A DNA stretch of 64,000 nucleotides from a virus (lineage: Duplodnaviria; Caudoviricetes), in IMG/VR virus record IMGVR_UViG_3300042268_000564, one strand, 5' to 3'. Below are positions 5,399-33,223 of this stretch, in pieces. Each line of letters starts with the position of its first letter. The stretch's first letter is position 1. The notes beneath the pieces are model-generated. The model searched no databases and had not been told where the DNA came from. It saw only the letters and a program-made list of their open reading frames with translations. The position numbers and the translations under genes are program-made.

Positions 5399-7753
5399 AT
5401 GCTAACACCACAACAAATACTTGAGAAAATGTTGGAATGTGTTGCGTCTTTCGACGGGGCGCATACTGAAGAGTCTTTAGACCGAGCGATATTAAGAGCT
5501 GAGGCTAATTCTCTTTTTAGAATCCTGAGAGTTATTGAAGAAAGTTCAGGGCAGAGATTTGCAGTAACTGCGTCGGGGAAATATCTTGACCTTATCGGGC
5601 AAAGCATGTCACGGCCTAGATACGCTGGTGAATCTGATGATGATTATCGTGCGAGACTTGTGTTTAATGAGCGATTCTGGAATGATGTCACCGTAGCAGG
5701 CATCAAGGAAATGATAAAAAATTACTATGGTATCGACCTTGATAATGATGAATATGAAGAAACTAGACTTGTAGAGCTGTATCGTTCAGCCGCAGCCTTC
5801 CTTAGCGATGAAGAAGAGTGTGAAATAAAGCCTTGGGGTGAATTTGGTGCAGAATGGTTGGGTGCCAATACATTGCCCGGTGCGTTTGAAGTGCATTTGA
5901 GATGTTTTCAAGACGGCGAAGAAAAGCTCATTAAGAAACGCCATGTAAAAGAAAAGCTTATGCAGGTGCGAGCCGCAGGTATTGTGGTTTTGCTTTATTT
6001 TCATATAAGTTTTGGTGCCGACGCTATGATGCCGCCAGAAGGTGGGATAAGCGAGCTTGAATTAATTCAAAAAGAGACAGTGCCAATCCCTGAAGTTGAC
6101 CATGAATTCGAAGTCGAGATAACGAATAACGAGATTTCGTCTATTGTTGAGAGTGCTACTGATAAATTAAGAGGTTTAGTGTCTCGTAGAATTGTTCATA
6201 TCGACCAGAAAAATAAATGTCGTCCTGATTATCAGGAAGAATTTAATAGAATCACGACACCTCTTGAAATGGCGAAGTTTAATGCAGGGGAAGGTATGAG
6301 ACGTGCTGAACCTTTCAGATTTCGACAAAGTCGTTTAAGAAATTCTTGCTGGCGTTTTTATTATGGGACGAAATATGAAGAAATGGATATCACTGCCGCT
6401 TCTTTAACTCTGTCATTGGCATGGAATAAGCCTTCTACTTTCTATCCTCAGCAATATAAGGTTTATTATGATGAGGGGGGCAAAACGCTTGACGGGACAG
6501 GCTTATATTTAAACGGTGAAAGAGTAGACTCCCCTTTTACTGTTTCTGCTGCGATGCTTCAAGACCAAGACCAGCCAGCAATAGTTTTAACAAATGCCTC
6601 TTTGTCGGGGCTTTATTATTTTGAGATTGCTGCGATTATGCCGAATGGTGACGAACTGAAGCCATTGAATTCAGCATATTCTACATATAATGCAGGGATT
6701 CACACTTATTACACAAGACCGAATCCTATGGTAGATGCAACGCATCATTATCGTGGGGATGATACCTACGGGGTAGATTTTTATTCATTGATGGAATATT
6801 GTAATTTCTGGTGGCGTGTTTCATCTGTAGAGAATGGAACAGTATCAGCTACCTCATTGCCTTGGAAATTAACCGTTTACAAGACACAGGAGCCTATCAG
6901 TAGATTCTGGTGGCGTGTAACAACTGTCGATGGACAGGTCTTGAGCGCACCTTCAAAAGCGGCATTATTAAAGCTTGTCGGACAATCGAATATGGCGGAA
7001 CCCTCTCGTCAGGATTTGATGCAGGTTGTAAGGTGGGGTGCGTATGCCAATAACATAAATTTGCCCTCAATTGCTCAGTCGGATTCACAGTTGACGATAA
7101 TGGAGAGATTTGATTCAAGTTACAATAACTTTTCCAGATTGGATATTTTGTCCCTGAAAACAAGTAGGACACCAGCCCGATTGATTTTAGCGAAATTGCC
7201 AGTTTGTGGTGCAAGACAAGATGACCCAATACTGCAACAAATAGATGCCGCTGATAAAGGCGTCGCCGTTGCTGGTTACATTCCTTTTAATTGGCAGTCT
7301 GTGTTTGTTAAAGATAAGTTCCGTCAGCTTATGGATAAAATAGTCTCGGCAGGATATGACGGTGTTTTGCTTGACGGGCTGTGGTTAAATGATGTTTTTG
7401 GCGATGAAATATCAGCCGTGGAATTGGTTAAAGAGATAATTAATTACTTCAGGGTGATTAAATCGAAGCCATTGTTTTATGTTCTAATAAGAGGGCAGGA
7501 ACATTGGGTGGCACATTATGACCTGTTTAATTCATTGTCGGGGGTTCTTTCCGAGAATCTATTTTATGTTGGTGATGTTGAACAGCCAGCGGCAGTTACG
7601 CAAGATAAAGTGGGGTATTTGAATGTGTTTCACACAAATGGAAAAAGAGTGTTTGTGATTGATTATGTAGTGGATTCAGGGTTGCAGATTCTGTTCAAAC
7701 AAAAATGCGCAGCTCTTGGCTACGCATCTTTTATTACTGGTCAGAATTGGTAA
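5399..7753 (+). CDS. Baseplate wedge protein fused to an Fn3-like region and a C-terminal GH114/TM1410-like TIM-barrel domain
   Basis: N-term TASGKYLDLIG..RYAGESDDDYRARL..VRAAGI. Middle LSLAW..YKVYY..YYFEIAA plus two FWWRV hairpins. C-term GYDGVLLD..GVLSENLFY..GKRVFVIDY. Confidence 0.7.
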   Translation: MLTPQQILEKMLECVASFDGAHTEESLDRAILRAEANSLFRILRVIEESSGQRFAVTASGKYLDLIGQSMSRPRYAGESDDDYRARLVFNERFWNDVTVAGIKEMIKNYYGIDLDNDEYEETRLVELYRSAAAFLSDEEECEIKPWGEFGAEWLGANTLPGAFEVHLRCFQDGEEKLIKKRHVKEKLMQVRAAGIVVLLYFHISFGADAMMPPEGGISELELIQKETVPIPEVDHEFEVEITNNEISSIVESATDKLRGLVSRRIVHIDQKNKCRPDYQEEFNRITTPLEMAKFNAGEGMRRAEPFRFRQSRLRNSCWRFYYGTKYEEMDITAASLTLSLAWNKPSTFYPQQYKVYYDEGGKTLDGTGLYLNGERVDSPFTVSAAMLQDQDQPAIVLTNASLSGLYYFEIAAIMPNGDELKPLNSAYSTYNAGIHTYYTRPNPMVDATHHYRGDDTYGVDFYSLMEYCNFWWRVSSVENGTVSATSLPWKLTVYKTQEPISRFWWRVTTVDGQVLSAPSKAALLKLVGQSNMAEPSRQDLMQVVRWGAYANNINLPSIAQSDSQLTIMERFDSSYNNFSRLDILSLKTSRTPARLILAKLPVCGARQDDPILQQIDAADKGVAVAGYIPFNWQSVFVKDKFRQLMDKIVSAGYDGVLLDGLWLNDVFGDEISAVELVKEIINYFRVIKSKPLFYVLIRGQEHWVAHYDLFNSLSGVLSENLFYVGDVEQPAAVTQDKVGYLNVFHTNGKRVFVIDYVVDSGLQILFKQKCAALGYASFITGQNW

Positions 7754-7831
7754 TTAACGACCGAAGTTCTGTCTTTCTTCAACTTCTCGCTCACCGTTAA
7801 TGCGAGCTGCTGCACTGCCACCGTTTTCAAG

Positions 7832-8122: not shown

Positions 8123-8182
8123 TGTTTTTGAAAAAAAGTGATGCCCTCTACCATGTAAAGTATTTGAGAAATGGAGGGCATT

Positions 8183-8977
8183 ATGTTCAACTTGGATAAC
8201 AGTGTTCATTCTTACATGTATGGTTTTTTTAGTGCTGATGGTAATTTGTATGAAATGTCGAGAAATAGGGGTAGATTTTCGATTGAATTGTCTGTTGTTG
8301 ATGTAGAAATTTTGGAAAGATTCAAGGTGGTGTTGGAGGGAATTGGTTATACAGTTAGTCTAACGAGTCGGACTCGGAACACTAATTTTAAAAAAAATTA
8401 TTGTAGTAGCGTTTTGAGATTACATTCGTTTGATTTTCGTCAATGTTTGAAAAGATTGGGATATATTGCAGGAAACAAAGCAGGCATGTCGCTACCGGCG
8501 GGAGATTATTCTATAAGGGATTATCTGAGAGGGTATTTTGACGCTAATGGGTCGGTTGGTTTTACAGCCAAAGGCTTTCCTTTTATTTGTCTCGGCACGC
8601 CAAATGAAAATGTTGCGAATCTATGGAAGGAGTATGCTGGTAAAATTACTGGCTATTATAGCTCTGTTAAAAGAAACGCAAGGGATGGTTACTACAATAT
8701 TATGTTTAACAAAGAACGGGCGCAAGAGGTAATAAAAAATCTTTATACAGAGGATTGTATTTGTCTCAGACGAAAGAAGATTGTTGCTGAACAGGTTTTG
8801 TTGTGGCAACGTCCCGACAATATGCGCAAACACGTTCGGCAGGTTTGGGAAGCGTGGGAAGATGATTATGTATTGTCGCATTCCATAAAAGATAGTGTTG
8901 AAAAATTACAGAGGTCGTATTCGAGTATTGTATCAAGACGTGGAGTTTTAAAAAAGCTGAATAAAGTATTAGGTTAG
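8183..8977 (+). mobile_element. Free-standing double-motif LAGLIDADG homing endonuclease with a C-terminal helical (Myb/HTH-like) extension
   Basis: Motifs YMYGFFSADGNL and YLRGYFDANGSV; C-term WEAWEDDYVL..LQRSYSSIVSRR. GGAGG RBS favours the ATG at 8183. Confidence 0.85.
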
Positions 8978-9896: not shown

Positions 9897-11480
9897 ATGG
9901 CTGACAGTTTTACGCTAAAGGATAGTTTAGCTACCAGAAAGTATGAGATTACAAATGTAGTCAGGATACTTCAACCGCTGACAGAGTCGTCGCTTGGCGT
10001 ATTGTTGTCTGTAGAAGACGCTCGTGCCATTTTAAGTGACAGGCTTGCTGCTTTGTCCGGTCAGGTTGATGTAAATACTCTTGATATTGCACAAATTACT
10101 GACAGGCTTTTGGAAGCAGTTAATGTACTTACAGGAAACAATTTTTCTATCGCCGATTTAAGGGATGGCACTCTTCCTGTGTCAGCAGTATTGGATGCGA
10201 TTCAATCTGTGACCAAAGACAAAAAGTTGGTTATCTATCCTCGTTTTGAACTTGGAAATATCGCTGGTCAAGCTACTGGCAGCATCATTTTAACACCTGA
10301 AGAATTGGCCAAATATGATTCTTTAAGTTGGGCTGATGAACAATATGGGGGGCTTGATGCCCCCTATAATGTCGCTATTCCAACATTGGCGTCATTGGCT
10401 TATTCAGATGAGACTGCTGTTGATTTGTTGTATGCAGACAAGACCCCTGTTTTTAATGATGACAATGACAGGTTGCTTGGTTTTGTTTCTGGATTTACTG
10501 GCGGGAATGTAATTAATATTACTTGGGGTAAAATGATTGCAGGGAGTTTTGTGCCAGAAGCTATCCCTGCATCAGTAACTGACGAGGTTACTGCCATTGT
10601 GCCGATGAAGACCAATTTGTCGGTTTTGCCAGTGACAAGCCTGTCTTTGACGAAGCTAGATAATTTTGGCGTTAATCAGCAAGATGAGCTTGAAAATGTT
10701 CAGTTGGTTTTGGCAAATAATGGTTTAACTACTTCGACAGAGCTTGGTGGGGTTTTGGGGCTTGCAAATGTTACGGTAACTGATTTTCTTTCTGCGACTG
10801 CTTCTGCATTATTCCCCACAGGGTTTAATAATGTTATTTCTGCTATTTCTGCGATTGTTGTTCAGTTGCAGAATATTTTGGCACAACAAGCATCAACGGA
10901 AGATGTTTGGCCGTATGTGGGGCAAGTAGAAGAAGATGCCTTGGTCAGTGCTGTGCATGGAATACTTATGTCGCTCACAGATAATTATACGGCTGCTCTT
11001 GTTGATTCGTTCAGGACAGATGAGAATCTTTATGTTGGTGCTGATAAAGCCGATGTAGATATAAAGAAGTCTGTCTTAAAGCATGGCGATGAAGGCATGT
11101 TAAAGACTTATTATTTGCAGCAAGTGAATGATGATGTTGCTGGCAAAACAAGTGTTATTTTTAAGATTCAGCTTTCAGAGCCAGAGGTTGGCAACCAAGA
11201 CTATGAAATAGGTGCCATTTTGGAGATTAAGGGGGGACGATATGGCACAGGAGTTTCATATAATCTAGTGCAATTTACTTCCCCTTTGCCGTCTCAGACT
11301 GAATTGCAGGAATTGGTAGAATATGACCTCACAGCATTGCCTCATAACCCTATGGGTGACACTCCATTAGACCCTATTGTTGACGTTGGCGAAACTATGT
11401 GGTTAAGGCTTGTTATTAAGATGGACTCTGCGGGTGTAGAATTTACTCCTATTATTAGAAATTATCAACTTTTTGTGTGA
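9897..11480 (+). CDS. Putative virion structural protein
   Basis: 527 aa acidic protein; its C-terminal TPIIRNYQL resembles the TPLLRSW end of the upstream gene; tail context. Confidence 0.55.
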   Translation: MADSFTLKDSLATRKYEITNVVRILQPLTESSLGVLLSVEDARAILSDRLAALSGQVDVNTLDIAQITDRLLEAVNVLTGNNFSIADLRDGTLPVSAVLDAIQSVTKDKKLVIYPRFELGNIAGQATGSIILTPEELAKYDSLSWADEQYGGLDAPYNVAIPTLASLAYSDETAVDLLYADKTPVFNDDNDRLLGFVSGFTGGNVINITWGKMIAGSFVPEAIPASVTDEVTAIVPMKTNLSVLPVTSLSLTKLDNFGVNQQDELENVQLVLANNGLTTSTELGGVLGLANVTVTDFLSATASALFPTGFNNVISAISAIVVQLQNILAQQASTEDVWPYVGQVEEDALVSAVHGILMSLTDNYTAALVDSFRTDENLYVGADKADVDIKKSVLKHGDEGMLKTYYLQQVNDDVAGKTSVIFKIQLSEPEVGNQDYEIGAILEIKGGRYGTGVSYNLVQFTSPLPSQTELQELVEYDLTALPHNPMGDTPLDPIVDVGETMWLRLVIKMDSAGVEFTPIIRNYQLFV

Positions 11481-11490
11481 GGGAACTGCG

Positions 11491-11955
11491 ATGTCGCCGA
11501 CTAAGAAAACAACAAGAGATGAAATAACAGCCCTTGTGGGTAAAATTTTACAGCAACATAATCAAGTTGAGCGCAATCGTATTTTAGAAATGTTACTTGA
11601 ACTCGATAGAGACAAGACGCAAGCTCGGCTCGAAATGGAAATTCTTAAAAATGAACTTAATCAGGCGATTCATAGTCTTGAGATGCGCAGGACGAGTCAG
11701 GTGGATGATAAACAAAAAGATTGTCAGGAAACGATGCGAGAGAGATTTGCCGTCATAGATAGTAATATAGAAAGGATGCGTCCTAACTATATCGCAGTAT
11801 TAGGGCTTTTATTTTCTGTGTTATTGCCTTTTTTGGGCTGGGTTTATTCCATTCAGGCGGCTGTATGGGAGACTAAGGTTTCTGTTGCGAGTGTACGACA
11901 AGAGGTTACAGAGATTAAAGATAAGGCAAGGCTGTTGAAAAAGGACGATAAATAA
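11491..11955 (+). CDS. Coiled-coil membrane protein with one C-proximal TM helix (holin/XhlA-like architecture)
   Basis: Charged heptad N-terminus, hydrophobic YIAVLGLLFSVLLPFLGWVYSI, basic C-terminus. Confidence 0.55.
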   Translation: MSPTKKTTRDEITALVGKILQQHNQVERNRILEMLLELDRDKTQARLEMEILKNELNQAIHSLEMRRTSQVDDKQKDCQETMRERFAVIDSNIERMRPNYIAVLGLLFSVLLPFLGWVYSIQAAVWETKVSVASVRQEVTEIKDKARLLKKDDK

Positions 11956-11969
11956 GCGGGTGATTTAAT

Positions 11970-17239: not shown

Positions 17240-17249
17240 GGGGGATGGC

Positions 17250-18059
17250 ATGGCAACGTCAGTTAAAGATTTTGTAATACAAGGTTACGTATATCAGGGC
17301 GGAAGTAAGATTCTTAACGGGTTTGTTCGATTAAGAAATACTAATTTGCCAGATGTTATAACTGTTGCAAGGATTGGTGTAATGAATGATGGCACCAGTA
17401 ATCCGCCAGTTACGGATGGCATTTATGACGCATGGTGGTCGTCTCTTGGAAATCCGAGCGCGCCAGATGTCGCCAGAGTCGGCGACATTTTTGAGGTCTC
17501 TGTTTACGAACTTGATTCTGTCGCTGACATTAATCTTCCAGTGGAACTTTTAATGGAGCCAGTTGGCACTTTGGATGCCCCGATAATTCCTGCATTTAAT
17601 ATTTCAGCAGTTACTCAAGCCCATATTGACGCTGGCATGATGATTTATGATGTGTATGCTGCGGCGAATTCACTTCCTCAAGCTGTTACAATCGTGCCTG
17701 AAGATTTAGAAAATGGGTATAATTTGCGCTTTACAAATAATTCAACTGTCAAATGGGTGTGGACGATTCCGGCAGATAATGAGAACCAGCCCATTCATTT
17801 TAAAGTTGAATGGAGTAAAGACCCATCATTCCCGTCTACACCGGGAGTGGTTGGCGTTGCAACAACTTTGCCTACAGACCCTACAAGAACATTGTTTAAG
17901 TATGAATACAATCCTAATGTGTTTGGCGCATTTCCAAGCACGGGTGTTGAGAATCGGACTGGCTGGCGATGCATGTTGCAAATGAATTTGGGAAGCAGCT
18001 TGTCAAATGATGGGGAATATTATTGGCGAGTAAGTGCTACCGATGGCACAACTACTTGA
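17250..18059 (+). CDS. Structural protein: N-terminal beta-sandwich plus a C-terminal Fn3/Ig-like domain ending at YYWRVSATDG
   Basis: N-domain is paralogous to 18638-18988; C-domain is paralogous to domains in 21136, 28244, 29925 and 30927. Confidence 0.6.
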   Translation: MATSVKDFVIQGYVYQGGSKILNGFVRLRNTNLPDVITVARIGVMNDGTSNPPVTDGIYDAWWSSLGNPSAPDVARVGDIFEVSVYELDSVADINLPVELLMEPVGTLDAPIIPAFNISAVTQAHIDAGMMIYDVYAAANSLPQAVTIVPEDLENGYNLRFTNNSTVKWVWTIPADNENQPIHFKVEWSKDPSFPSTPGVVGVATTLPTDPTRTLFKYEYNPNVFGAFPSTGVENRTGWRCMLQMNLGSSLSNDGEYYWRVSATDGTTT

Positions 18060-18092: not shown

Positions 18093-18635
18093 ATGCCAGT
18101 AACAGGTCATAAAATTTATTGGAATACTGCGCCACAAATTAATGGTATGACGAATACAGCACATCCTGTTAATTCGGCATATAATTCGCCTATTGACATA
18201 TCATCGTTGCCGGGGTTTGACATAAATAATCCCAATTCAATTGTATTGCCGGGTGATTTTTGGGTAAATCAGTTTGCCTCTACAGGGATTTATGTTCGGA
18301 TAGGTGTTTTTGATGGAACTAGTTTAGCGGGGCTGTCCAGAGTGATGAAGATTAAACATTATGGGAAGATTTTTACGGGTGTTGGGCAATATTTCCCATT
18401 TTGTATGCCGCTTGATGATGGGAATGTCAAAACAGTTAAAGAAACATGTGTCACAATAAATAGTACGGGGGCTTTTTTCAAAACTAATGCAGGACAGTGG
18501 AAATATACGACGCCTGCATATTTGACAGTAGATGATTCTCCTATTATGGATGGGATGCGGGGTGCTTTATTCCTAAAGCCTGACGACGAGGGTGTTATTT
18601 CTTGGCTAGGAAAGCCTTGGCGAAAGGAGCCTTAA
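18093..18635 (+). CDS. Structural protein: N-terminally incomplete Fn3-like domain plus a small C-terminal domain
   Basis: GGAG RBS; starts at VTGHKIYW; GFDINNPNSIVL matches GFDPENPSITL in 20086; ends ISWLGKPW. Confidence 0.55.
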   Translation: MPVTGHKIYWNTAPQINGMTNTAHPVNSAYNSPIDISSLPGFDINNPNSIVLPGDFWVNQFASTGIYVRIGVFDGTSLAGLSRVMKIKHYGKIFTGVGQYFPFCMPLDDGNVKTVKETCVTINSTGAFFKTNAGQWKYTTPAYLTVDDSPIMDGMRGALFLKPDDEGVISWLGKPWRKEP

Positions 18636-20085: not shown

Positions 20086-21120
20086 ATGGCATTAGTTAAC
20101 GGGACTGAATATTTTTATTCGATTTACTTTTATGATGCAAGTGGGAATTACACTCGTCTCGACTCTTCGGCTATTCCTGAGTTAAATATCCCTGCGCCAG
20201 TGATGACATCATTAGTCTCGGGGGACAATCAATTGACTCTGACATGGGACAAGGTGGATTTATCGGGGAATGATGTGGACAGCTATAAAGTTTACTACGG
20301 ATTTGCTCCGGGAGACTACTCTTTTACGAAGTCGGTATTGTTGACTGATGCTGGCTTTGACCCTGAGAATCCATCAATTACGTTGACAGACAACATTTTT
20401 AATAATACGACTTATTGGGTGACTGTGTCTGCAACTTATGCCAGCAATGAGTCTGCTTATGCGGCGCCAGAACTTAGCGCAACGCCAGCATTGGTGTCAC
20501 TTGTGCCGCAGCCGCAGAATGTTTATGCTGTTGCGGGTGATGCAGCATTTAGAATCAAATGGGACAATGATGCGAGTGTTGATAAGTGGATAGTGATGTA
20601 TGATACCGCTACGCCGCCAATAACCAATGCAGTAGAAATATTGCCGGGGCAGGTTCAAATTGACCCCGGTGACGGGATGGCATATTTTGACGTTTTGCAT
20701 GTCGACGGGGTAACACCTGTAGTTAATGACACTTTGTATTTTGTCCGAATGTGGGCTGAGATAACTGGTGCTGCTGAACAAAGTCCGGGTTCTGAAATTG
20801 TTTCAGTATTCCCGCAAGAGGGTTTGGTTGGATTTGTTGACGGGCTTTATGCTTATTCGGTGCCGTATTATGAAAATATTGTCGGCGTTCCTCTGGCAAC
20901 AACAAGTATGGACACTCTGGACGCAATGACAACTACAATGCAGAGTCCTTATACAATCTATTATGACACGTCATTCAATACATACATCCCGGGACTTAGT
21001 CAGGGTGGCGACACAGTTGTTTCAGGCGCGACGGCTTATATTGTAGGAGCATCTGATTTGTCGGGTGAGGATATTATAGTGACTGGTGATGACTGGAGCA
21101 ATGACATTACAAGTTTGTAA
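20086..21120 (+). CDS. Fibronectin type III repeat structural protein
   Basis: Two Fn3 domains (GDNQLTLTW..YKVYY..YWVTVSA; GDAAFRIKW..YFVRMWA), preceded by an orphan LVNGTEYFYSIYFYDASGNY segment. Confidence 0.75.
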   Translation: MALVNGTEYFYSIYFYDASGNYTRLDSSAIPELNIPAPVMTSLVSGDNQLTLTWDKVDLSGNDVDSYKVYYGFAPGDYSFTKSVLLTDAGFDPENPSITLTDNIFNNTTYWVTVSATYASNESAYAAPELSATPALVSLVPQPQNVYAVAGDAAFRIKWDNDASVDKWIVMYDTATPPITNAVEILPGQVQIDPGDGMAYFDVLHVDGVTPVVNDTLYFVRMWAEITGAAEQSPGSEIVSVFPQEGLVGFVDGLYAYSVPYYENIVGVPLATTSMDTLDAMTTTMQSPYTIYYDTSFNTYIPGLSQGGDTVVSGATAYIVGASDLSGEDIIVTGDDWSNDITSL

Positions 21121-21135: not shown

Positions 21136-22272
21136 ATGGCGATTGTAAGAAATGTAATAGCCAAAGCAGGCTATCATAAAGTGGGTGTTGCATGGTTAGC
21201 CCCATTAGATGTGTTTGACCATGTCCGTGTATTGTATAAATTGGGCAGTGCGCCAGCAAATGATACTGATGGGACTTATGTAGATTATTCAATCGGCGAC
21301 CCTGAAATAAGTGTTGATTTCGGCGACTCTTTAGGACTTGGTGGCTATTTTCAATATGAAAGTTCTGATGTCGCTACACCTGTTTATTTCCAAATTTATA
21401 CTTATGCTACACCGGATGACCCTGCGCCTGAAATGGTTCAAAAAACTGCGGCACCGGGCGCTGGCGGACTAAAGATAAGTCCTTATGCGGGGACTTTGCA
21501 AGACCAAACAGGTGTACCAATTGTTGTAGGAACTGATACATGGCTTGTTAAAGCGGTGAATGCTCGTTTGAATCCATTGGTTAGCCCCGGCGATTTGTTT
21601 TATGAGCTGGAGTCTAATGCGATTACAGACGAGAATTTTGTCATTGATTCTTTGAATAATGGAATTAGTGTTGTGACGGATTACGCTGACGACCTTTTGT
21701 GGCATGATGACACAATCGTATTTGAAGTTTGGAAGAATGGCAGTAAACTTTATCAATCATCCAAAAAAATTAATCTGTATCAAGCGACTCACTCTTATAC
21801 GCAGTTCCCGGGTGGCACTGGCGACCCAGACCTTCTTTCACAGTTGATATTGCAGGCTCCTGCGAATCAGCTTCCGTTGGCACCTGACATTGTTGCAGGA
21901 CAGGATACAAGCACGACTGATTTGACGCCAACTGTTATGTGGTATCACAGGGCGGATATTGATAATGTAAATAATGAAATTCATTATGCAGTAGAGTATG
22001 CCACTGCACAGACATTGGTTGGCGGAAGTATGCAGGTTGATGATACTCATGCATCTTATCGGGCATTTCTTTCAATTGACAACCCAGAATATTTTGAATA
22101 TTCAACCGATGGCGGTTCTACTTGGACATCATTTACAACTCTTGCGGGGGCAGGTTTGGTTTTGGCAGAGGATAGTCAGAATCAAGTTCGTTGCACAGTG
22201 CCTGCTGCGAGTGAATTGAGTGTGGGACAATGGTATTGGCAAGTGCGTGCGACTGACAAGACTCTTGCCTAA
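21136..22272 (+). CDS. Fn3/Ig-like domain structural protein
   Basis: N-term VGVAW..VRVLYK..PANDTDG; C-term TPTVMW..IHYAVE..WYWQVRATD then stop. Confidence 0.65.
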   Translation: MAIVRNVIAKAGYHKVGVAWLAPLDVFDHVRVLYKLGSAPANDTDGTYVDYSIGDPEISVDFGDSLGLGGYFQYESSDVATPVYFQIYTYATPDDPAPEMVQKTAAPGAGGLKISPYAGTLQDQTGVPIVVGTDTWLVKAVNARLNPLVSPGDLFYELESNAITDENFVIDSLNNGISVVTDYADDLLWHDDTIVFEVWKNGSKLYQSSKKINLYQATHSYTQFPGGTGDPDLLSQLILQAPANQLPLAPDIVAGQDTSTTDLTPTVMWYHRADIDNVNNEIHYAVEYATAQTLVGGSMQVDDTHASYRAFLSIDNPEYFEYSTDGGSTWTSFTTLAGAGLVLAEDSQNQVRCTVPAASELSVGQWYWQVRATDKTLA

Positions 22273-22294: not shown

Positions 22295-22567
22295 ATGGCA
22301 ACCCCTAAACCACCTGTCTTGGTTACACCTGCGGACGCAATGATTACGGTCGACACGTCGCCTGTTTTTCGCTGGCAAGTGCCGGAAGGTGAAGAGGGTG
22401 CTCGGTATGATTTTCTATTGGAAATTGCCGAGGACAGGGACTTTACTAAGAATGTTAGACGATTCAACTCATTTGAGAGCAAAGAAGGATTTTCGTTTAA
22501 CACGCCAAGAGAAGCAAATTCGGGAGAAATAGTGTCCTTCGTATTGCCGGAGCCTTTAGTGACTTAA
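22295..22567 (+). CDS. Small stand-alone, C-terminally incomplete Fn3/Ig-like domain
   Basis: GAGG RBS; PVLVTPAD..PVFRWQVP..EGFSFNTP aligns with domains of 28244 and 30927 but stops before the YYWRV strand. Confidence 0.65.
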   Translation: MATPKPPVLVTPADAMITVDTSPVFRWQVPEGEEGARYDFLLEIAEDRDFTKNVRRFNSFESKEGFSFNTPREANSGEIVSFVLPEPLVT

Positions 22568-22624: not shown

Positions 22625-22681
22625 CCTTTTTTAGTTTGTTCGGTAGGTAATATAAAAGAAATTAACCGGAAGGAAAAAGTT

Positions 22682-23161: not shown

Positions 23162-23184
23162 AAGCCTTGTCAGAAGGTAATATG

Positions 23185-23218
23185 AATAAGAGGGGCACAA
23201 AATCCCCTCTTATTTTTT
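23185..23218 (+). terminator. Rho-independent terminator after dut
   Basis: AATAAGAGGGG-CACAAAAT-CCCCTCTTATT followed by TTTT. Confidence 0.8.
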
Positions 23219-23256
23219 ATCAAAGAAAGAAACTATTAAACAGGGTAGATATATAA

Positions 23257-24099: not shown

Positions 24100-24112
24100 T
24101 GGAGGCTGGTAA

Positions 24113-27100
24113 ATGACAAAGACAATCTCATCATATATATATTCAGATGCGTCAATAGTTCAGCCTTTGCAGGTAAATGCGCAGTTGGGGAAAGTAATTG
24201 GTGGTTATCAATATTCTGACCCAAGCATAATTCAGCCGTTAGAAGAAATAGGTGAAATTCCAACTGTTGAGCTTGTCGGCGGACTTTCTACTGTTTATCA
24301 AAATATCAGGTCTATTTCGGCAGTGATAAGAGTTTATGACTCTCTGACAGGGAATGATTTGCCTGATGTTAATGATGTTTTTGAATATAGTTTGGTAAGA
24401 TTTGGCGAAGCTGACTCTTGGCAGATAAATACTGATGAGAATATTCAAGTATTAAATCCAGACAATACAGTTGCTGCTGGCATGATGGAAGGTCACTTTG
24501 TTTTAAAAGTAAGAGTGACCAGAGATGGAAGTTATATTGCACCGGGTGTCCTGTCAAAAGAATTTTTTGTGGATGAAGTTGACCCGGTTGTAAGTATAAC
24601 GCCTGCGGCAGGCAGTTATTCATCTACAACTCAGATAGAATTGAGTGTGGTGGATTATACTGCGGCGACGATTTATTACACTACAGACGGGAGCGAGCCA
24701 ACTACTTCCAGCAACGCATATGTTTCTGCGATTGGAATGATGAATGCAGAAATCCGTTATATGGCAGTTGACGCTGCTGGGAATCAGAGTGCTACACAGA
24801 CAGCATCTTACTCTATAGATGATATTGCGCCTTTGATTACCGTATTGCCAGACGATACGCTTTTAAGTCTCGGCGAGGTGTGTAATGTTACTTGGCATGT
24901 TAATGAATATTGCGATACTGTTATTTTTGAACTCGGTGGTGACGGACTTAATATTGGTACCGGAACTGAATTGTTTGAATATACAAATGTAGTGGCGAAC
25001 GACCCTCGCATTACTACTATAAGCTCATTGCAATTACCAAATGGTGATTCAGAAATCAATGCCTATGCTGTTGATATTGCTGGAAATTGGGGACATGCAG
25101 GCTTTTCCATTACTTACAGCTCTCTTGTTCCTACGATTACAATATATGAAGTTTTTAGACCCGCTCTGGCTGCTGACGAAGACGGCGTTATTATTTGGTC
25201 GTCTGATTATGCAGGTGATTATGAAATCAGAGTTGGCGGTGCGAACCCCGGCGAAGGCACGCTTGTAGAAGATGGTGTTATTGCTGCGCACGAAATAAAA
25301 GAAAGTCAGGTTTTAAACTCGACTCTCGTAGCAAATGCTGACAATCAGATTAGAGTTTATGTTACTACGTCAGTAGGCAATACAGGCACGAATTCGTCAG
25401 TTAGAATGACTGTGGACTCAGAAGCACCTACCACTGTAATAAACCATTACGGCAGTGAAAGCCCATTCTCGGCACCTTTCGTGCTATCTATCACTGCGAG
25501 CGATAATGTTGTTGTAGGGATTCCTACAAATTTTGGTGAGAGTGTAGATGTAGAACCGCTTAATTATAATTTTAATGGCATGAGTCTCCAGACAGAGTGG
25601 AACTCAGGTGGCTATCAATATTCTGACCCAAGCTTATTGCAGAGTCTAAATGTTCAATTGCCTATAATCATAAGCAATGTGACAGCAATGGCTACCGTGA
25701 CCACTGCAACGGTTACTTGGGACACAAATAGAAATACAAACTCAGCTCTGTACTATGGATTGCAACCAGATTTGTCAGATGCAACCATTGAAAGTGACTC
25801 GTCCCTTGTTACTGCTCATTCTATTGGCATAACGGGGTTGACAGCCGATACGCAATATTTTTATAAAGTTGTTTCGGGAAGTGATGGCTATTTTGAAGAG
25901 TCCGCTATCCTGAGTTTTACTACAGCTACTGTCATAGATAGTGTTCCGCCAACAATTTCTAATGTAGTTGCTTCAGCAATAAGTGCGACTGAAATATTAG
26001 TTACTTGGGATACTGACGAGCAAGCAACTTCTGCTGTAATGTATGGACAACAATCAGATTTGTCTGATGGCGTTATGACAGCCATGACAGACCTTGGCGG
26101 GGTATTTTCACATTCCGTATTGTTGACTGGCTTACTGGCCAATACTGAATATTTTGTAAGGGTTTACAGTAAAGACAGGTCGACAAATGAGAACGAATCT
26201 TCTAGTGCTATTTTTAGTGCTACAACTTGGGATAGTTCTGCTCCTGTTATTTCGAATGTGACCATAGATGTATATAAAACTATTGCAGTGGTAAGATGGG
26301 AAACTGATGAGCCAAGCGTAGGGCATGTTGATTATGGCATTAATAATAGCTACGGCTTAACTGCGAATGAATTAAATGCAGGTTTGAAAACACAGCATGA
26401 AGTTATCTTACAGTCTTTAACGCCTGACAGGCTTTATCACTACAATGTTGTTGCTGAGGATTCTTATGGGAATCAGACGGCTGTTTTTGACAGAGAATTT
26501 ACAACTTTTGCCAATAGAGACGACAGAGTTGTAATTTATGCGACAACTGATGGAACTACACCGACTACATCGCATTATGGATATCGAGCGATAGGGCTTC
26601 CATTGAATATCACTGTTAATGGTGACACTATTGTCAAGTATTTTGCGGCTGATGGGTTCGGGAATCACCAAGCAGTTCAAACTGAGAATTACGCATTTGA
26701 CATTTCTGTTCCTGTAATTACGTTCGACAGCATGACACCTATTCTTTTGGGTGGCGGTCAAACATCTATTATTCGCTTCAAGGTGAGCGAGGTAACTGAT
26801 TATGAAATCCTCAATCAAGATGATACGATTCTTGCAAGTGGGGTTTCTGGCATTGATGCGTGGATAGATGCATCTGTTTCGTCAGATGACATGGTAGAAG
26901 GTTATAACCATATAACCATTAGAGCAACTGACACGTTTAATTACACAGCAGAACTTCAGATAGGGCATATAATTAAAGACACAATTCCAGCAGAGGTTGT
27001 GGCTATGCCACCTGCGGGTTATTTCAAGGAAGATGTGTTCATCGATTTGTTGCCACAAAATTTGCGCACTGGCGAACAAGTTACAATTTATTATACAACA

Positions 27101-28231
27101 GATGGCACAATGCCTGATTTGACATCACCGTCGGCAATCGGACAGGTTAATGATATTCAAATTTCTGATACAGCAACAATCAGATGGTTTTCTGTAGACG
27201 AAGTTGGGAATATCGAACCTACAAAGTATGCACATTATGTAATTGACAGAATCAAGCCAACGGTTTCAGCATCACCATTGCCGGGAACTTATGACGAAGT
27301 TCTTTATGTGACGTTAACGCCTTCAGAACAGGCTTTGATTTACTACACTGTTAATGGCAGCATTCCTACTGAAGGTTCTGCTATCTATACAGCTCCGATT
27401 CAGATATTGCGAGACACAACAATTCGTTGTTTTGCAAAAGATTTGGCGGGGAATATTAGTGACCAAATTTACACTTTTGAATATCGAATACAGGTGCTTC
27501 ATGACAAGAAATTCAAAAAGGTTATTGGGTTCCAAGATAAATTTTTGCTGGAAACAGAAATTAATGAAATGCAGGACAATCTCAATCGCCGTATAGAAGA
27601 ACTCACTGGTGATGTGGTAGGTGGTGCCTGCGCTGCATACGGTTTCGATTTAACTTTGTCTGATTATACATTTGAGTTCTTTGTTGGCAAAGGTAGAGCT
27701 TATGTTGCGGGGAAATTTATCAGTATTGTTCGTGGCGACCAAGATTTCATACCTAAGCCGCAGCAGGGTGAGAATGATAAAACCTATCATATTGTTTTAA
27801 GACCTCATGAGCCAATATATCGACCATTAATGCCGGGACAGCCGGGATGGGAAACTGGTGTTCCAGAGATAACATCCTATCGTCTTGAAGAAAGCTATGT
27901 GCTTGAGATTGTGGAAGATTTGCCAGATGTTCCTCATTTGGAACTTTATGAAATTTTCAGACCAATGACTGCAACAAGAGCGGCTGACTGTACTATAGTA
28001 GAAAAGATTCATCGTTTTGAATCCTTATGTGAATTTCAGTCGAGAATAAATCAAACTGTTTCTGAGATGCAGGCAAATTTCTTGGCATTAGGTTTAGAAA
28101 TTGAGTCTTACAAAGTAAGAAATTTGTTAGGGTTAAAAAATGCGTTTGTTGATACGTTTGAGTCTGTCAGTGATGTGGACATGAGTAAATCAACGGGGTT
28201 CAGATATAAAAATACGAGATTTGAATTGTAA
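24113..28231 (+). CDS. 1372-aa multi-domain tail protein: four chitobiase-C-terminal-like Ig domains, three Fn3 domains, C-terminal tail-attachment-type domain
   Basis: IYYTTDGSEPT, IYATTDGTTPT, IYYTTDGTMPD, IYYTVNGSIPT; three (V/T)WxT units; C-term KKFKKV..EINEMQD is paralogous to the N-terminus of 35927. Confidence 0.75.
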   Translation: MTKTISSYIYSDASIVQPLQVNAQLGKVIGGYQYSDPSIIQPLEEIGEIPTVELVGGLSTVYQNIRSISAVIRVYDSLTGNDLPDVNDVFEYSLVRFGEADSWQINTDENIQVLNPDNTVAAGMMEGHFVLKVRVTRDGSYIAPGVLSKEFFVDEVDPVVSITPAAGSYSSTTQIELSVVDYTAATIYYTTDGSEPTTSSNAYVSAIGMMNAEIRYMAVDAAGNQSATQTASYSIDDIAPLITVLPDDTLLSLGEVCNVTWHVNEYCDTVIFELGGDGLNIGTGTELFEYTNVVANDPRITTISSLQLPNGDSEINAYAVDIAGNWGHAGFSITYSSLVPTITIYEVFRPALAADEDGVIIWSSDYAGDYEIRVGGANPGEGTLVEDGVIAAHEIKESQVLNSTLVANADNQIRVYVTTSVGNTGTNSSVRMTVDSEAPTTVINHYGSESPFSAPFVLSITASDNVVVGIPTNFGESVDVEPLNYNFNGMSLQTEWNSGGYQYSDPSLLQSLNVQLPIIISNVTAMATVTTATVTWDTNRNTNSALYYGLQPDLSDATIESDSSLVTAHSIGITGLTADTQYFYKVVSGSDGYFEESAILSFTTATVIDSVPPTISNVVASAISATEILVTWDTDEQATSAVMYGQQSDLSDGVMTAMTDLGGVFSHSVLLTGLLANTEYFVRVYSKDRSTNENESSSAIFSATTWDSSAPVISNVTIDVYKTIAVVRWETDEPSVGHVDYGINNSYGLTANELNAGLKTQHEVILQSLTPDRLYHYNVVAEDSYGNQTAVFDREFTTFANRDDRVVIYATTDGTTPTTSHYGYRAIGLPLNITVNGDTIVKYFAADGFGNHQAVQTENYAFDISVPVITFDSMTPILLGGGQTSIIRFKVSEVTDYEILNQDDTILASGVSGIDAWIDASVSSDDMVEGYNHITIRATDTFNYTAELQIGHIIKDTIPAEVVAMPPAGYFKEDVFIDLLPQNLRTGEQVTIYYTTDGTMPDLTSPSAIGQVNDIQISDTATIRWFSVDEVGNIEPTKYAHYVIDRIKPTVSASPLPGTYDEVLYVTLTPSEQALIYYTVNGSIPTEGSAIYTAPIQILRDTTIRCFAKDLAGNISDQIYTFEYRIQVLHDKKFKKVIGFQDKFLLETEINEMQDNLNRRIEELTGDVVGGACAAYGFDLTLSDYTFEFFVGKGRAYVAGKFISIVRGDQDFIPKPQQGENDKTYHIVLRPHEPIYRPLMPGQPGWETGVPEITSYRLEESYVLEIVEDLPDVPHLELYEIFRPMTATRAADCTIVEKIHRFESLCEFQSRINQTVSEMQANFLALGLEIESYKVRNLLGLKNAFVDTFESVSDVDMSKSTGFRYKNTRFEL
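24140..25654 (+). repeat. Three dispersed YSD(A/P)SxxQxL peptide repeats (starting at 24140, 24212, 25619)
   Basis: GGTGG(T/C)TATCAATATTCTGACCCAAGC occurs at 24200 and 25607. Confidence 0.8.
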
Positions 28232-28243
28232 GGGGTTGGCAAC

Positions 28244-29911
28244 ATGGCTTTAAGTAATGCTTCACAAACCAAAAATATAACAATTGCATCTGCTAATTAC
28301 GGGAATTATAGCAGCACTTTTGAATTTGTTGTTAACCTGAATCAAGCCCCAGAAAAAACAATCCTTGTTACGCCTGCCGACGACGAAATTTTGATTGGTG
28401 ATTTTAGACCGATACTTTCATGGAATGTGCCAGCAGACCCTGAAATGCAAGATTTACAATTTCAAGTGCAGATAGACCTTGCCAGCACATTCGATTCACA
28501 GGTTGGCGGCTTGCCTCTTATTGTCGCTGACAGTAGTGTAAGTTATGATGGATTTGATTTTACATCGCCAGTGCCGTCTGGAAACGGCACTGCAAGCTAT
28601 CAGCCAATAGTAGATTTAGCTGATAAAACTGTTTACTATTGGCGAGTGAGGGCATTTGACGGGACAAGATATGGTGAATGGTCGGAGCCTAACAAATTAA
28701 CCATTGGCATTGTTGCTACAGAGATTAGACTTGTTGCTGATAGGGTGTATATGCCAGCGGCAAATACACTTGTGAATATTACAGCGTCTTATGTTGACAG
28801 ATTTGGAAACGTGGACGTTTCTTATCAAAACTTGCTGATTTTTGTTCAGTCGCAGACGGTAATGGGGGCTTTTAGCGACACGTCGGTTCTTGTTGTGGAC
28901 GGCGTGGCTACTACAAGTTATACGTCTACTGGGGTTTTGGGTGCGACTCATATAGAAGTTGTAAGTTCAATGCCTCACAACACCCTGATATTGCGTTCTA
29001 TTGTAATTGGCGAAGTCCCTATATTAATGACACCTCTCAATGGTCAAAGGTTGCCGAGCGAGACTAGACCAAGATTAACATGGTTGGTGCCTGATGATGC
29101 TCAGGGTGATTTGTTGCATTTCAAGGTTGAAATTTTTGATTCACCTCTCATGAGCATGGGTGATTTAATATATTCAGCAGACAGCAGGCTAGACGCTACT
29201 GGCTTTATACCTGCGATGCCAGTGCAGCCTCTTATTCCGTCTGCATCTCACGATGTGCAAATGGATTTGGTTGACGGGAAGTATTGGTGGCGTGTTACAC
29301 CATATGATAGTGCGTATAAAGCTGCATCAGAACCCTTTGTATTTTCAATGCCCGATGAAATGACGGTTGTTTCTAAGCCATTGGTGAGCAATAAGGCTGT
29401 ATCACAGGTCGTGGTAATGGCGAATGTTACTATTGAGCAGCGTGGTGAAAATTTGCCTGCGGAAGCCAAGCATTTTGTTACGAATATGGCTTTTGAACCA
29501 GAGGGTGAGATTATTTGGGAAGAGGTTACTGAAAAAGCAAAAGCAAGAGGACGTCATGTTTTCGAACAAAAAGATGTTCCAGCGCATGGTTGGGCTGTTG
29601 CAATAAAAACAGTCATTAAGGCGAATGAAACTACAGGGCAAATTTCGTTAAATGGGCATGGTGTAGTTTTTGACGGTGATTATGTTGGCACAGCAGATGA
29701 AGATTATATCGGCGTATTGTCATCAGTAACGCCAATAGGTTTTACAGCAATGCCTGTAGATAGTGGCGACTCTATTGCGCTTACATGGAGTTATGTGGAT
29801 TTGAATACCGATAATAGACGGGTTATTGATAAATTCATCATTGAGGTATTTAATCCTACTACTGGCGAGTATGAGCCGTATGACGGTGGCACTGGCGAGA
29901 TTATAGCGTAA
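28244..29911 (+). CDS. Multi Fn3/Ig-like structural protein
   Basis: Two complete W.VP.D...L.F.V...YxWRV domains, an invasin-like Ig domain and a terminal half-Fn3 (IALTWSY..KFIIEV). Confidence 0.7.
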   Translation: MALSNASQTKNITIASANYGNYSSTFEFVVNLNQAPEKTILVTPADDEILIGDFRPILSWNVPADPEMQDLQFQVQIDLASTFDSQVGGLPLIVADSSVSYDGFDFTSPVPSGNGTASYQPIVDLADKTVYYWRVRAFDGTRYGEWSEPNKLTIGIVATEIRLVADRVYMPAANTLVNITASYVDRFGNVDVSYQNLLIFVQSQTVMGAFSDTSVLVVDGVATTSYTSTGVLGATHIEVVSSMPHNTLILRSIVIGEVPILMTPLNGQRLPSETRPRLTWLVPDDAQGDLLHFKVEIFDSPLMSMGDLIYSADSRLDATGFIPAMPVQPLIPSASHDVQMDLVDGKYWWRVTPYDSAYKAASEPFVFSMPDEMTVVSKPLVSNKAVSQVVVMANVTIEQRGENLPAEAKHFVTNMAFEPEGEIIWEEVTEKAKARGRHVFEQKDVPAHGWAVAIKTVIKANETTGQISLNGHGVVFDGDYVGTADEDYIGVLSSVTPIGFTAMPVDSGDSIALTWSYVDLNTDNRRVIDKFIIEVFNPTTGEYEPYDGGTGEIIA

Positions 29912-29924
29912 GGGGAACGGGATT

Positions 29925-30923
29925 ATGCAAAAATCAATTAATTCATTTATATATGGCGATGCGTCGACACCTGTAAATAGCCTGTTGGTGACCAGTGTCC
30001 TTCAGCCTGTTGTCGTTTTGACGGCTTTTCCACAAACATACACGAATTCAGCGCAAGCATCTTTCCAATTCAGGGTTGACTCCCTTGAAGGAAACGTGTT
30101 GAACACTGCGACAGTTTATTATAGGCTTTCACCTACAGATGCTTATATTGATATCGGCTTAGAAAGAGAAATTCCTGTTTTTCAGGCAAATATCGGCTTA
30201 AATTATATAGATTTTAAAGCTGAAATAAATGGACAGTGGTCAGACATAGTAACTTATCAATGGACTGTTGATACAGCAGCACCTACTGTTGCTAGTGTTA
30301 CACCAATAAATGAGGCTAATGATGTTGGCGTGCAGACGCAGATTGAGATTACGTTTGATGAAAATGTGCAAGCCACACCAATTACACAAAATAATGCAAT
30401 ACAGATTCAACCGTCAATTGCAGGAAGTTGGACGGGTTCAGGGGCGACGTATACATTCACGCCGAGTGGACGTTATGAATATGCTACTGAATATACTGTT
30501 GTTGGCACATCTGCAATTAAAGACATGGCAGGCAATATTTTTACAAGTGGTGAAATATGTAGGTTCGCCACTATTGAGCGCACAAATGAAGCACCGTCAG
30601 CCCCTGATTTCGATGGGATTACGAATATAAGTAGAACGTCTGGGAAGAAGCCGCAGCTCATTTTTAATATTCCTGATGATGTAGACCTTGACCGCCTTCA
30701 TTTTACTGTAGAAGTGACTAATGTTGTTTCGGGACAGGTGAGGTTATTTGCATCATTAGTTTATCCTGACAGTTTTGTTTACTATCCAACTTCAGGCACT
30801 CGAACAGTTCCTTTCCCCACTACGGGGGTGGTTCCTATGAGTGGGAAAGTTGTATTTAAAACGCCGATAGAATTGGATTCTGGCGAATATGCGTTTAAAG
30901 TTTTTGCGGACGACAGGAGATAA
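29925..30923 (+). CDS. Ig-like (Big_5-type) structural protein
   Basis: DTAAPTVASVTP..IEITFDE..IKDMAGN; C-term IPDDVDLDRLHFTVE..YAFKVFADD. Confidence 0.7.
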   Translation: MQKSINSFIYGDASTPVNSLLVTSVLQPVVVLTAFPQTYTNSAQASFQFRVDSLEGNVLNTATVYYRLSPTDAYIDIGLEREIPVFQANIGLNYIDFKAEINGQWSDIVTYQWTVDTAAPTVASVTPINEANDVGVQTQIEITFDENVQATPITQNNAIQIQPSIAGSWTGSGATYTFTPSGRYEYATEYTVVGTSAIKDMAGNIFTSGEICRFATIERTNEAPSAPDFDGITNISRTSGKKPQLIFNIPDDVDLDRLHFTVEVTNVVSGQVRLFASLVYPDSFVYYPTSGTRTVPFPTTGVVPMSGKVVFKTPIELDSGEYAFKVFADDRR

Positions 30924-30926
30924 AAG

Positions 30927-32285
30927 ATGGGAACTCAATTTAATACACCTACGGTAGCAGCTTATCCAACATCTTTAAATCGTGTAGCTCCTGTAGCATC
31001 TATTGTGATGCCATCTACAACTATTGTTGGTGACAGAGATTTAACAATTCAATGGACAGCGGATAAGCCTGATTGTCGGTTTAAATGGGCTGTAACAGGT
31101 TCAACAAATCTTATTCCGTGGACTACAGCTTGGGCATATGATACGAGTGTTGTTTATTCTAATGTTCCTAATGGAAGTTACACAATTTCGGTTAAAGCAC
31201 TTGATGAGTGGGGGAATGAATCTATTGTTGCAACAAAAGCAATAGATGTTCGTAGAGAAATTATTCCACCAACTGTTTTGGCACCTTTGCAGGGTGATAT
31301 TTTGCCATCAGGCAATGTGGTATTTCGTTGCACTGTGCCTCGAAATGAAACAGGTGATTTATATCATTATGCTTTTCAGATTTTGGAAGAAATATCTGAA
31401 AGTCCGTTGCAGACTAGATATGTAGAGAATCAGCAATGGTTCGATAGTCGTGATGGATATGATGGATTCAGTTTTACATCGCCAGTGCCTGAAGATGCTG
31501 GTGGTGAGGTTAGTTTTACTAAGGCTCTTGATGTAAGAAAGAATTATTATTGGGCAGTGAGAATCAGCACTCTCAGAGCTGGGGTCGTGACCTATAGTGT
31601 TACTACACAGCCGCAAAGATTCACTGTGGGGGTTTTGGCTACAAAAATAATCCTGACAGCACAGCCGGGAGTATTAAGAGCTGATAACGTGACGAAGACC
31701 ACTTTACAGGCTAAGGCTGTGAATCCGCAAGGTCAGCTTGATGTTCAGTGGACGGGAACGGTGAATTTTTCTATTGCGTCGGGAACTGCGTCTTTCGCTC
31801 AGGCTAATATTGGCGTTGGTTTTGCGGGAGGAATAGCAGAAACAAAAATGACTGCTAATGTGGCGAATGTGGTTTCAGTTTCGGCGGCGAGTAATAAGTT
31901 ATTGAATGGAACGGCAAATATTCAGTTTGTGACAAATCGTTTACCTGAGAGTCCTGCATGGCACGAGGATAATTTGGCAGAGACTAATGAAATACGGGCT
32001 AAATTAAAAATCAATGTGCCATCTGATGCTGATAACGATTTGATTCACATGAGGGTTGAGTTGGACACAGAACCAACATTTGATAGTCCGAACAAGATTG
32101 TCGCTGAAAGCCGTTTCTCTACGATTAACTGGACATATTTTGACGGAACGAATGAGATTCCTTATCCAGTAAGTGGCGTGCCACAGGGTGTCCCTAACAC
32201 ATGGGTAGCGTATGATACTGGCGATGTTTTAATAGATGGCAAAAGATATTATTGTAGAGCGTCAGCATGGGATAATTGGCAATGA
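30927..32285 (+). CDS. Multi Ig/Fn3-like structural protein
   Basis: GSYTISVKALDEWGNES, DGFSFTSPVP..YYWAVR, an invasin-like LRAD segment, and VPSDADNDLIHMRVE..YYCRASAWD. Confidence 0.7.
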   Translation: MGTQFNTPTVAAYPTSLNRVAPVASIVMPSTTIVGDRDLTIQWTADKPDCRFKWAVTGSTNLIPWTTAWAYDTSVVYSNVPNGSYTISVKALDEWGNESIVATKAIDVRREIIPPTVLAPLQGDILPSGNVVFRCTVPRNETGDLYHYAFQILEEISESPLQTRYVENQQWFDSRDGYDGFSFTSPVPEDAGGEVSFTKALDVRKNYYWAVRISTLRAGVVTYSVTTQPQRFTVGVLATKIILTAQPGVLRADNVTKTTLQAKAVNPQGQLDVQWTGTVNFSIASGTASFAQANIGVGFAGGIAETKMTANVANVVSVSAASNKLLNGTANIQFVTNRLPESPAWHEDNLAETNEIRAKLKINVPSDADNDLIHMRVELDTEPTFDSPNKIVAESRFSTINWTYFDGTNEIPYPVSGVPQGVPNTWVAYDTGDVLIDGKRYYCRASAWDNWQ

Positions 32286-33223
32286 TAAATAATCTTGGCT
32301 ACGACAATTTATATGGGGGCATAACCTTAAAATGGTCTGTAGACAATCCTGCCAACTTTAACGGTGTAAGAGTATATTTGCAGGGTGATGATTTGACGCT
32401 GCTCGCTACATTGTCGAGTTTTACAGAGGATTACACCTACTTGATTCCACAAGCGGACAGGGGAGTTGTTTTAAACTTTGTTGTAGCATTATTTGTGGTT
32501 GATGATGTCGAGGCTGTTGAATACGAAGTAGCGACCATTCCTAACCCACCTGTTAATCTGTCTGGTGAATCAAAAGAAAATATGGCTATTTTGACATGGG
32601 ACTCGCCACAGGGCAAGAATATTAAAGGATATCTTGTAAAACGAGATGGCGAAGAATTGGGTGTTGCAGCAGCGGGGAAATATACCGATATAGGGAATTT
32701 TATAAAACCACCTTCCAGCGGAAACAGTTACACATACGACGTAGCTACAATTACCTATAATAATGAGCTTTCATCATTCCTTTCTGTTAATGTAACTATT
32801 GTTATTTCCGAAAGAACAATTCAAGAGAGATTATCTAAATCAGTTACAGTTGCAAAAGTTGATAAATATCGTATTTGTTCTGTTGATGAAGATGGCTCTC
32901 GTTCAAGATGGACTACATTCCGTAAGATTGATATGCCAAGTTTATTACCAGCGCATGAGATGCAATTCCGTATCCAAGCGATTACGACAACAGGGGCAAA
33001 GTCTTTGCCATTGGTGACAAAGTCGATAAAAGTAGATAGCAATTTTGAAGCAGGCGACTATCCGACATTTCGATTAAGGGTGATAGATGTAGATGGTTGC
33101 GAGTCCGATGCGATTGTAACGGTGGCTCAGGATTATCTCTGGCGACAAAAAGTATTGATTAACAGAAGTAATGATTTGTTAATTAATAAGTCCGATGAGA
33201 CTCTTGTCGGCAGGGAGTTGTAA
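32282..33223 (+). CDS. Fn3 protein with three tandem orphan C-terminal Fn3 hairpins
   Basis: ITLKW and AILTWD..GYLVKRDG Fn3 units, then KYRICSVDEDGSRS, MQFRIQAITTTGAKS and PTFRLRVIDVDGCES. Confidence 0.65.
   Translation: MINNLGYDNLYGGITLKWSVDNPANFNGVRVYLQGDDLTLLATLSSFTEDYTYLIPQADRGVVLNFVVALFVVDDVEAVEYEVATIPNPPVNLSGESKENMAILTWDSPQGKNIKGYLVKRDGEELGVAAAGKYTDIGNFIKPPSSGNSYTYDVATITYNNELSSFLSVNVTIVISERTIQERLSKSVTVAKVDKYRICSVDEDGSRSRWTTFRKIDMPSLLPAHEMQFRIQAITTTGAKSLPLVTKSIKVDSNFEAGDYPTFRLRVIDVDGCESDAIVTVAQDYLWRQKVLINRSNDLLINKSDETLVGREL

Follow-up and report, generated by a model that had tools for sequence, protein, structure and literature searches.

The virus record IMGVR_UViG_3300042268_000564, covered here by a window of 64,000 nucleotides from this single record of 393,839 bp, carries in its baseplate and fibre region Fn3 domains that are divided between genes. 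The cut points are conserved among related phages, the pieces are complementary in sequence, and complementary pieces lie on separate genes. This split-domain system is real, conserved and very probably functional, and it probably operates by plug and socket, whereby separately made virion proteins would complete each other's folds non-covalently and assemble a branched appendage on the baseplate. A preliminary description of the window had proposed that tail proteins are joined in this manner through incomplete domains and orphan strands; the motifs quoted there were all recovered in their places, and the proposal has survived every refutation test that could be run, although it was incomplete and its wording on novelty does not hold. 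Positions refer to the window unless marked as genome positions, genes are named by their start position, and all window features given below lie on the plus strand.

Comparison of the genome with a profile of the domain, an Fn3 of the Rha78A-N type, yields eight copies, all within 17217-32285, of which three are complete (strands A to G), four end after strand F and one, the 90-residue gene 22295, ends one strand earlier, after E. Two of the complete copies lie in 28244 (28334..28708 and 29003..29350) and the third in 30927 (31251..31631). The first copy of 28244 matches the Pfam family PF25788 (Ig_Rha78A_N) over positions 10-103 of 105, with 35.3 bits against a cut-off of 27.4 (E 1.5e-8), and the truncated copies fall below this cut-off, being related to the family through the domain profile built here. 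The four copies that end after strand F, hereafter sockets, are all C-terminal and belong to 17217 (17661..18059; the likely start of the gene is the ATG at 17250), 21136 (21859..22272), 29925 (30579..30923) and 30927 (31929..32285); the proteins of 17217 and 21136 contain no donor strand of their own. A second profile, of 120 positions, was built from 68 complete domains, which belong to other proteins of the representative library, most of them very large; with it, orphan peptides could be tested without circularity. On this profile the four sockets cover positions 2-104 and stop at 103-104.

The stops that create the sockets are shared by diverged relatives. The four truncated genes have 31 orthologues at 29-72% identity, and in every one the protein ends 2-6 residues past the same strand-F Asp: 3-4 residues past it in all seven orthologues of 17217 (34-68% identity), four in all six of 21136 (29-72%), 2-3 in all seven of 29925 (35-59%) and 4-6 in all eleven of 30927 (39-69%), so that the split points pass the conservation check proposed earlier. 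Among 74 internal copies of the family, almost all run on into strand G, the start of which is often donor-like; the exceptions are four short proteins. Frequent recombination in tail-fibre regions, and the fragments that such regions can contain, are general grounds on which sporadic decay or assembly error might be invoked for the truncations. The same genes are, however, present in independent assemblies, and no indel, joint or variant is seen at any stop in four wastewater runs, possibly including the run from which the record came; because the same stops recur in independent assemblies, samples and diverged orthologues, decay and assembly error are for practical purposes excluded. Recoding or readthrough of the stops was also considered and rejected, TAA and TGA being mixed and the flanking frames closed or unconserved.

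The strand that the sockets lack is found elsewhere in the module. Placed behind the socket of 17217, 21136 or 30927, the five peptides singled out in the preliminary description extend the profile match to positions 112-118 and add 8-19 bits, a gain equalled by 0-1 of 150 random peptides; the effect is weaker on the socket of 29925 (0-17 of 150), which is shorter than the other three. These donors occupy profile positions 106-119, and the two parts of a sandwich lie on different genes, each with its own start. Three of them belong to 24113 (24113..28231), a 1372-residue CHB_HEX_C/Fn3 protein by its Pfam matches that has no socket. Donor 1 (24140..24175) is recovered by both donor matrix and profile; donor 2 (24212..24247) fits less well in its second half, the profile reaching only to position 112; and donor 3 (25619..25654) lies in the linker preceding three inserted Fn3 domains and is kept in L009 and L017. 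Orthologues of 24113 keep donors in numbers from one (L019) to four (L009). The N-terminal donor of 28244 (28298..28333) is the most canonical, adding 13-19 bits on all four sockets (0 of 150 random peptides) and being kept in five of five orthologues. The last, at the N-terminus of 29925 (29952..29990), is supported by donor matrix and profile, is disordered in the AlphaFold model and is missing in one orthologue (P0034/L019). With a matrix derived from complete G strands the five peptides rank 6, 16, 120, 288 and 755 of 119,375 windows, ranks that are not an unbiased probability because the peptides were picked by eye; with a matrix trained only on the donors of related phages, four window donors take ranks 1-4 of about 119,000 windows. 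In L012 and L017, extra donor-bearing genes come after the socket genes.

The ends of donors and sockets match almost residue for residue, as they might if the pieces were joined covalently, be it by RNA trans-splicing, by readthrough or ribosome bypass, by DNA rearrangement, or by an isopeptide bond to the Asp, Glu or Asn that donors retain at one position; in this genome, moreover, the reading frame of 29925 continues across its stop into 30927. That frame is nevertheless not kept, because the gap between the two genes varies among seven phages (2, 2, 2, 3, 3, 5 and 7 nucleotides), and this variation, together with the purine-rich start region that precedes each gene, makes readthrough unlikely. 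Rearrangement was examined as a candidate and dismissed, the junctions having no long shared repeats and the four runs no DNA joints. Furthermore, 19 aligned sockets contain no invariant Lys that could face the donor's Asp or Asn in an isopeptide bond of the SpyTag/SpyCatcher kind, and several donors are internal or in tandem. Covalent joining is accordingly given very little credence.

Predicted structures agree with sockets that remain incomplete in the isolated protein. The AlphaFold model of 30927 (mean predicted local distance difference test score, pLDDT, 81.7) shows the G strand of the complete copy at residues 220-234, and its last domain ends at strand F (442-449) with strand A unpaired and residues 1-14 disordered. 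In the model of 29925 (mean pLDDT 83.2), which likewise ends at strand F, pLDDT falls below 50 at the donor (residues 1-23) as well as at the socket's strand A (residues 221-239). The last domains of both proteins, predicted alone, thus lack strand G, as the preliminary description had anticipated, and neither takes a substitute strand from its own N-terminus. Foldseek with the 30927 model returned only generic tandem Ig/Fn3 proteins, and a PDB sequence search found no close structure.

These models also bear on whether the A-F domains might be stable six-stranded folds, closed by an inserted hairpin, with the orphan strands left as linkers from older gene fissions. All four sockets carry such a hairpin and the three complete copies of the window do not, and without strand G the cores of the sockets reach pLDDT 77-92 in the models. 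The hairpin was rejected as a built-in substitute for G because several complete relatives (P0092, P0108, P0128 and P0105) hold both; strand A is, in addition, disordered or unpaired in the AlphaFold models, and the orphan pieces are conserved as much as or more than the proteins that carry them and occur as tandem repeats. We regard a self-sufficient six-stranded fold as improbable. Separately, three unrelated proteins of 138-142 residues (P0068, P0107 and P0129) are made up of an inserted-hairpin domain of this kind and, instead of a normal G strand, a short aromatic Asn-Gln motif behind it; they perhaps represent another truncated form.

Docking of donor and socket was modelled for one pair, the 21136 socket with the 28244 donor, selected because the nearest complete relatives of that socket have the G strands most like this donor. 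The predicted complex scored 0.44 (0.42, 0.62 and 0.44 in separate runs) against 0.02 for the best of three controls, with a partner pLDDT of at least 55 and at least 0% of contacts shared between runs. Of 80 solved complexes, 58 attain the score mark applied, as do 2 of 110 mismatched pairs; at values of 0.60 or less, only seven of the 80 do so, together with both mismatches. Because likeness to solved Fn3 domains tends to let the two halves of a split fold pass such a test, the score shifts the odds only slightly, and the docking proposed earlier gains from it a weak degree of computational support for a single predicted pair.

An exposed F edge could in principle pair with any strand, and truncated domains might accordingly associate with one another or with another edge strand, in a homo-oligomer or with a host or tail protein, the peptides of the Tyr-Ser-Asp-Pro-Ser type being ligands for something else. 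Most donors do show, ahead of the Tyr, additional conserved residues for which a G strand has no need, and the 21136/28244 prediction came with no interface. Donors nonetheless start where sockets stop and match the family's own G strand, and the complementarity is repeated at a second cut point, between 22295 and 5399; edge pairing of this kind appears unlikely, if somewhat less so than a closed six-stranded fold.

That second cut point is one of several through which the plug-and-socket system extends beyond the preliminary description, which recognized the split domains but missed other registers and partners outside the window. Two tandem orphan F-G hairpins are carried by 5399 (5399..7753), a baseplate wedge subunit with a gpI-like N-terminus, a GH114-like C-terminus and PHROG baseplate matches. 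Hairpin 1 (6800..6886), a plug for an A-E socket, covers profile positions 93-119 and hairpin 2 (6899..6982) positions 93-113; with 22295 they reach 84 and 88 bits, respectively, against 57, which none of 300 random sequences equals in either case. All 12 orthologues of 5399 (41-68% identity) have the pair of hairpins. Their counterpart 22295 (22295..22567) is a free A-E socket covering profile positions 5-89 and ending before strand F; in three relatives it is likewise a 90-residue protein, in two others it is the C-terminal part of an Fn3 chain of 460-470 residues and stops at the same point, and its Atlas model has a pLDDT of 0.51. Hairpins and socket are complementary without overlap, and both are conserved, which makes 22295 the clearest candidate for a link to the baseplate. 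A GH114-like glycoside hydrolase domain (7290-7750) ends 5399 and its orthologues, and it is possibly a polysaccharide-degrading or -binding module of the baseplate.

Two further window proteins probably have partners 100-200 kb away. The protein of 18093 (18093..18635) starts at strand C of an Fn3 domain, and the C-terminus of the gene at genome 35659-36462 is probably its A-B plug: joined, the two give a modest 16 bits against 3.6 and 5.6 alone, with 0 of 300 in both controls, and in the relative L017 a matching plug gene stands two genes before the 18093 orthologue. The N-terminal F-G hairpin of 20086 (20086..20187) is 89-93% identical in two relatives, compared with 51-59% for the whole protein. 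Its A-E socket is probably the C-terminus of the gene at genome 140852-143752, a junction that fits by eye and for which the profile test gave a count of 9 in 300; L017 and L019 have the same kind of socket and hairpin on neighbouring genes, with three tandem hairpins in L019. A candidate cut of A-C' with E-G lies between two remote genes: the last part of the one at genome 93515-97606 and the first part of the one at 140852-143752 give, when joined, a full Fn3 match (56.7 bits, against 27.8 and 26.9). In the window, the C-terminal partial Fn3 of 28244 (29711..29911, about A to C'; 65-89% identity and the same end in five orthologues) is a candidate socket in another register, and three tandem units resembling E-F-G or F-G hairpins near the C-terminus of 32276 (32858..33130), kept in L008, L010, L012, L018 and L019, make that protein a candidate hub with several plugs; the two fit weakly through hairpin 2 (13 bits). 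Long Fn3-chain genes stand far from the virion operon (genome 35659-41010, 93515-97606 and 140852-143752; L016, L015 and L014), and most start or end in a partial domain, one of them having an RCC1-like repeat domain.

In the plug-and-socket model, a protein ending in A-F would expose a groove between strands A and F, into which the G-strand peptide of another protein would insert to complete the sandwich. The same principle could apply at the other cuts (A-E with F-G, A-B with C-G, A-C' with E-G), and the variety of cut points could prevent mix-ups between joints. Hubs would be the proteins that bear several plugs, namely 5399 (two hairpins), 24113 (three strands) and 32276 (three units), and the presence of several plugs on one chain would create branch points; donor-plus-socket proteins (29925, perhaps 30927) would serve as links, and the ends would be formed by the proteins with a socket only (17217, 21136). 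In the F/G register, 24113 and 28244 have donors only, 29925 a donor and a socket, and 30927 a socket and a doubtful donor, and 24113 would be the root that anchors this branch. The product would be a branched Ig/Fn3 apparatus on the baseplate, presumably serving adhesion.

Several observations weigh against this model. Plugs and sockets are unequal in number, and the number of donors varies, both among the orthologues of 24113 (1-4) and through the absence of a donor from one 29925 orthologue. The N-terminus of 30927, G-like by eye in distant orthologues, was rejected as a donor here, where it is matched by 38-76 of 150 random peptides. The profile is undecided at several other junctions (140852/20086, 36478/39679 with 35659, the 28244 C-terminus with hairpins 1 and 3 of 32276, and any partner of 19440). 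Lastly, the alignments behind the AlphaFold models are shallow (7-8 sequences), and the modelled pair was chosen by sequence likeness, not by evidence of partnership.

A more ambitious version of the model is tentative and somewhat doubtful. In it, several non-interfering Fn3 cut points would constitute an assembly code, by which a dozen or more proteins, among them baseplate hubs with several plugs, links, caps and swappable modules encoded 100-200 kb away, assemble into a branched or hair-like appendage. The links 29925 and possibly 30927 could then polymerise head to tail, in the manner of a pilus, and modules would be exchangeable between phages without re-fusing genes.

The region is assigned to the baseplate/fibre module of a contractile-tailed jumbo phage because of the genes upstream of it, namely terminase, major head protein, two tail sheath genes, baseplate hub, gp25-like gene and Baseplate J, the last of which (3329..5395; Pfam PF04865, 2e-35; PHROG 6) is a baseplate wedge protein that marks the contractile-tail context. 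The two tail sheath genes lie side by side and encode 709 and 745 residues (genome 203403-207848; L021). Wastewater metagenomes contain DNA of the phage, and no RNA data set is listed as containing it. A comparison of 28244 with 50,697 phage records from GenBank gave no match and no cultured relative; IMG/VR scans with single proteins and with alignments found no relative, and a metagenome scan recovered a single short contig.

Other features of the neighbourhood may be recorded here. Within the virion operon, 11473-13617 encodes a membrane protein, a receiver domain and a histidine kinase, and receiver and kinase hold the same position in related phages (L001, L002, L020). A dUTPase gene (22607-23161) stands amid the structural genes; the dUTPase of L001 (11606-12847) has 413 residues and a faint LAGLIDADG match, suggesting an intein. 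A free-standing gene between baseplate genes (8171-8977), by eye like a LAGLIDADG homing endonuclease, is absent from that place in L020. In 24113, an insert that contains donor 3 along with three Fn3 domains breaks up a CHB_HEX_C domain (25420-26520, by eye), and the C-terminal region (27480-28231) resembles by eye the N-terminus of 35927 (35927-36200), which may indicate a shared fibre-anchoring module.

How the many Ig-rich fibres and branches of jumbo phages are attached to the baseplate is mostly unknown, and the matter bears on host range and on the exchange of adhesion modules. The locus offers parts that are small enough to test, the four sockets having 114-137 residues and the peptides 12-30, and these can be compared with known systems. 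PF25788 is an Fn3-like domain of bacterial surface proteins and rhamnosidases, and the nearest unsplit relatives of the phage domains are large proteins with up to nine complete, internal copies of this type, whereas the phage sockets end after strand F and carry the inserted hairpin. The ABM1 and ABM2 motifs of Porphyromonas gingivalis gingipains are repeated short motifs thought to bind separate polypeptides non-covalently (PMC10319874; PMC5266723); the pieces in that system, however, arise by proteolysis of one precursor on the cell surface, and the Fn3 fold attributed to the motifs is not shown in those reports.

The closest precedent comes from the baseplate of Lactococcus phage Tuc2009. 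In its crystal structure, a 25-residue C-terminal beta-hairpin of BppU completes a sheet of BppA domain 2, forming a composite titin-like domain (PMC4742702; PDB 5E7T). Strand completion between virion proteins is therefore already known, and the belief that it had not been described for phage virions, expressed in the preliminary description, has to be withdrawn. The systems are alike in dividing a small beta-sandwich between two separately encoded baseplate proteins, and the Tuc2009 joint hangs an accessory adhesion protein on the baseplate. Tuc2009 is a small siphophage with one joint and a two-strand plug, whereas the phage considered here is contractile-tailed, with a genome of 394 kb, uses a single G strand as its main plug with four such sockets and at least five donors, and adds at least two further cut points and tandem plugs on one chain. 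In Pfam, PHROGs and PDB sequences the window proteins show no relation to BppU or BppA, and there was no match among 50,697 phage records. What is new here is the register of a single strand, together with how many joints there are and the hubs with several plugs: a literature search found no single-G-strand register described in a phage, nor so many joints or tandem plugs in one virion module. Nothing relevant came from searches on strand complementation, or on donor strands, in phage virions, which is weak evidence of absence, the same searches having missed the Tuc2009 paper. If the parts bind, the joint of a small dairy phage would be extended to a multi-joint network, the reason why annotation pipelines see broken genes in such regions would be explained, and natural split-Fn3 tag-and-catcher pairs would be available at several cut points.

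Chaperone-usher pili of the Pap and Fim type offer a second parallel. Their subunits have an Ig-like fold that lacks its last (G) strand and is completed in trans by an N-terminal extension, and they comprise socket-only, donor-plus-socket and donor-only forms. The phage system would resemble them in the missing strand G, in its N-terminal donors and in three subunit classes comparable to anchor, shaft and tip. On the other hand, its domains are Fn3 domains of the Rha78A-N type and not of the pilin fold, its sockets are C-terminal on multi-domain proteins made in the cytoplasm, and its internal and tandem donors would allow branching. No pilin, chaperone or usher family appears among the Pfam and NCBIfam matches of the scanned proteins, the genome as a whole not having been searched for a chaperone or usher. 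Though neither relatives of BppU and BppA nor pilins, these proteins would thus, by analogy, work in the manner of both the Tuc2009 joint and the pili.

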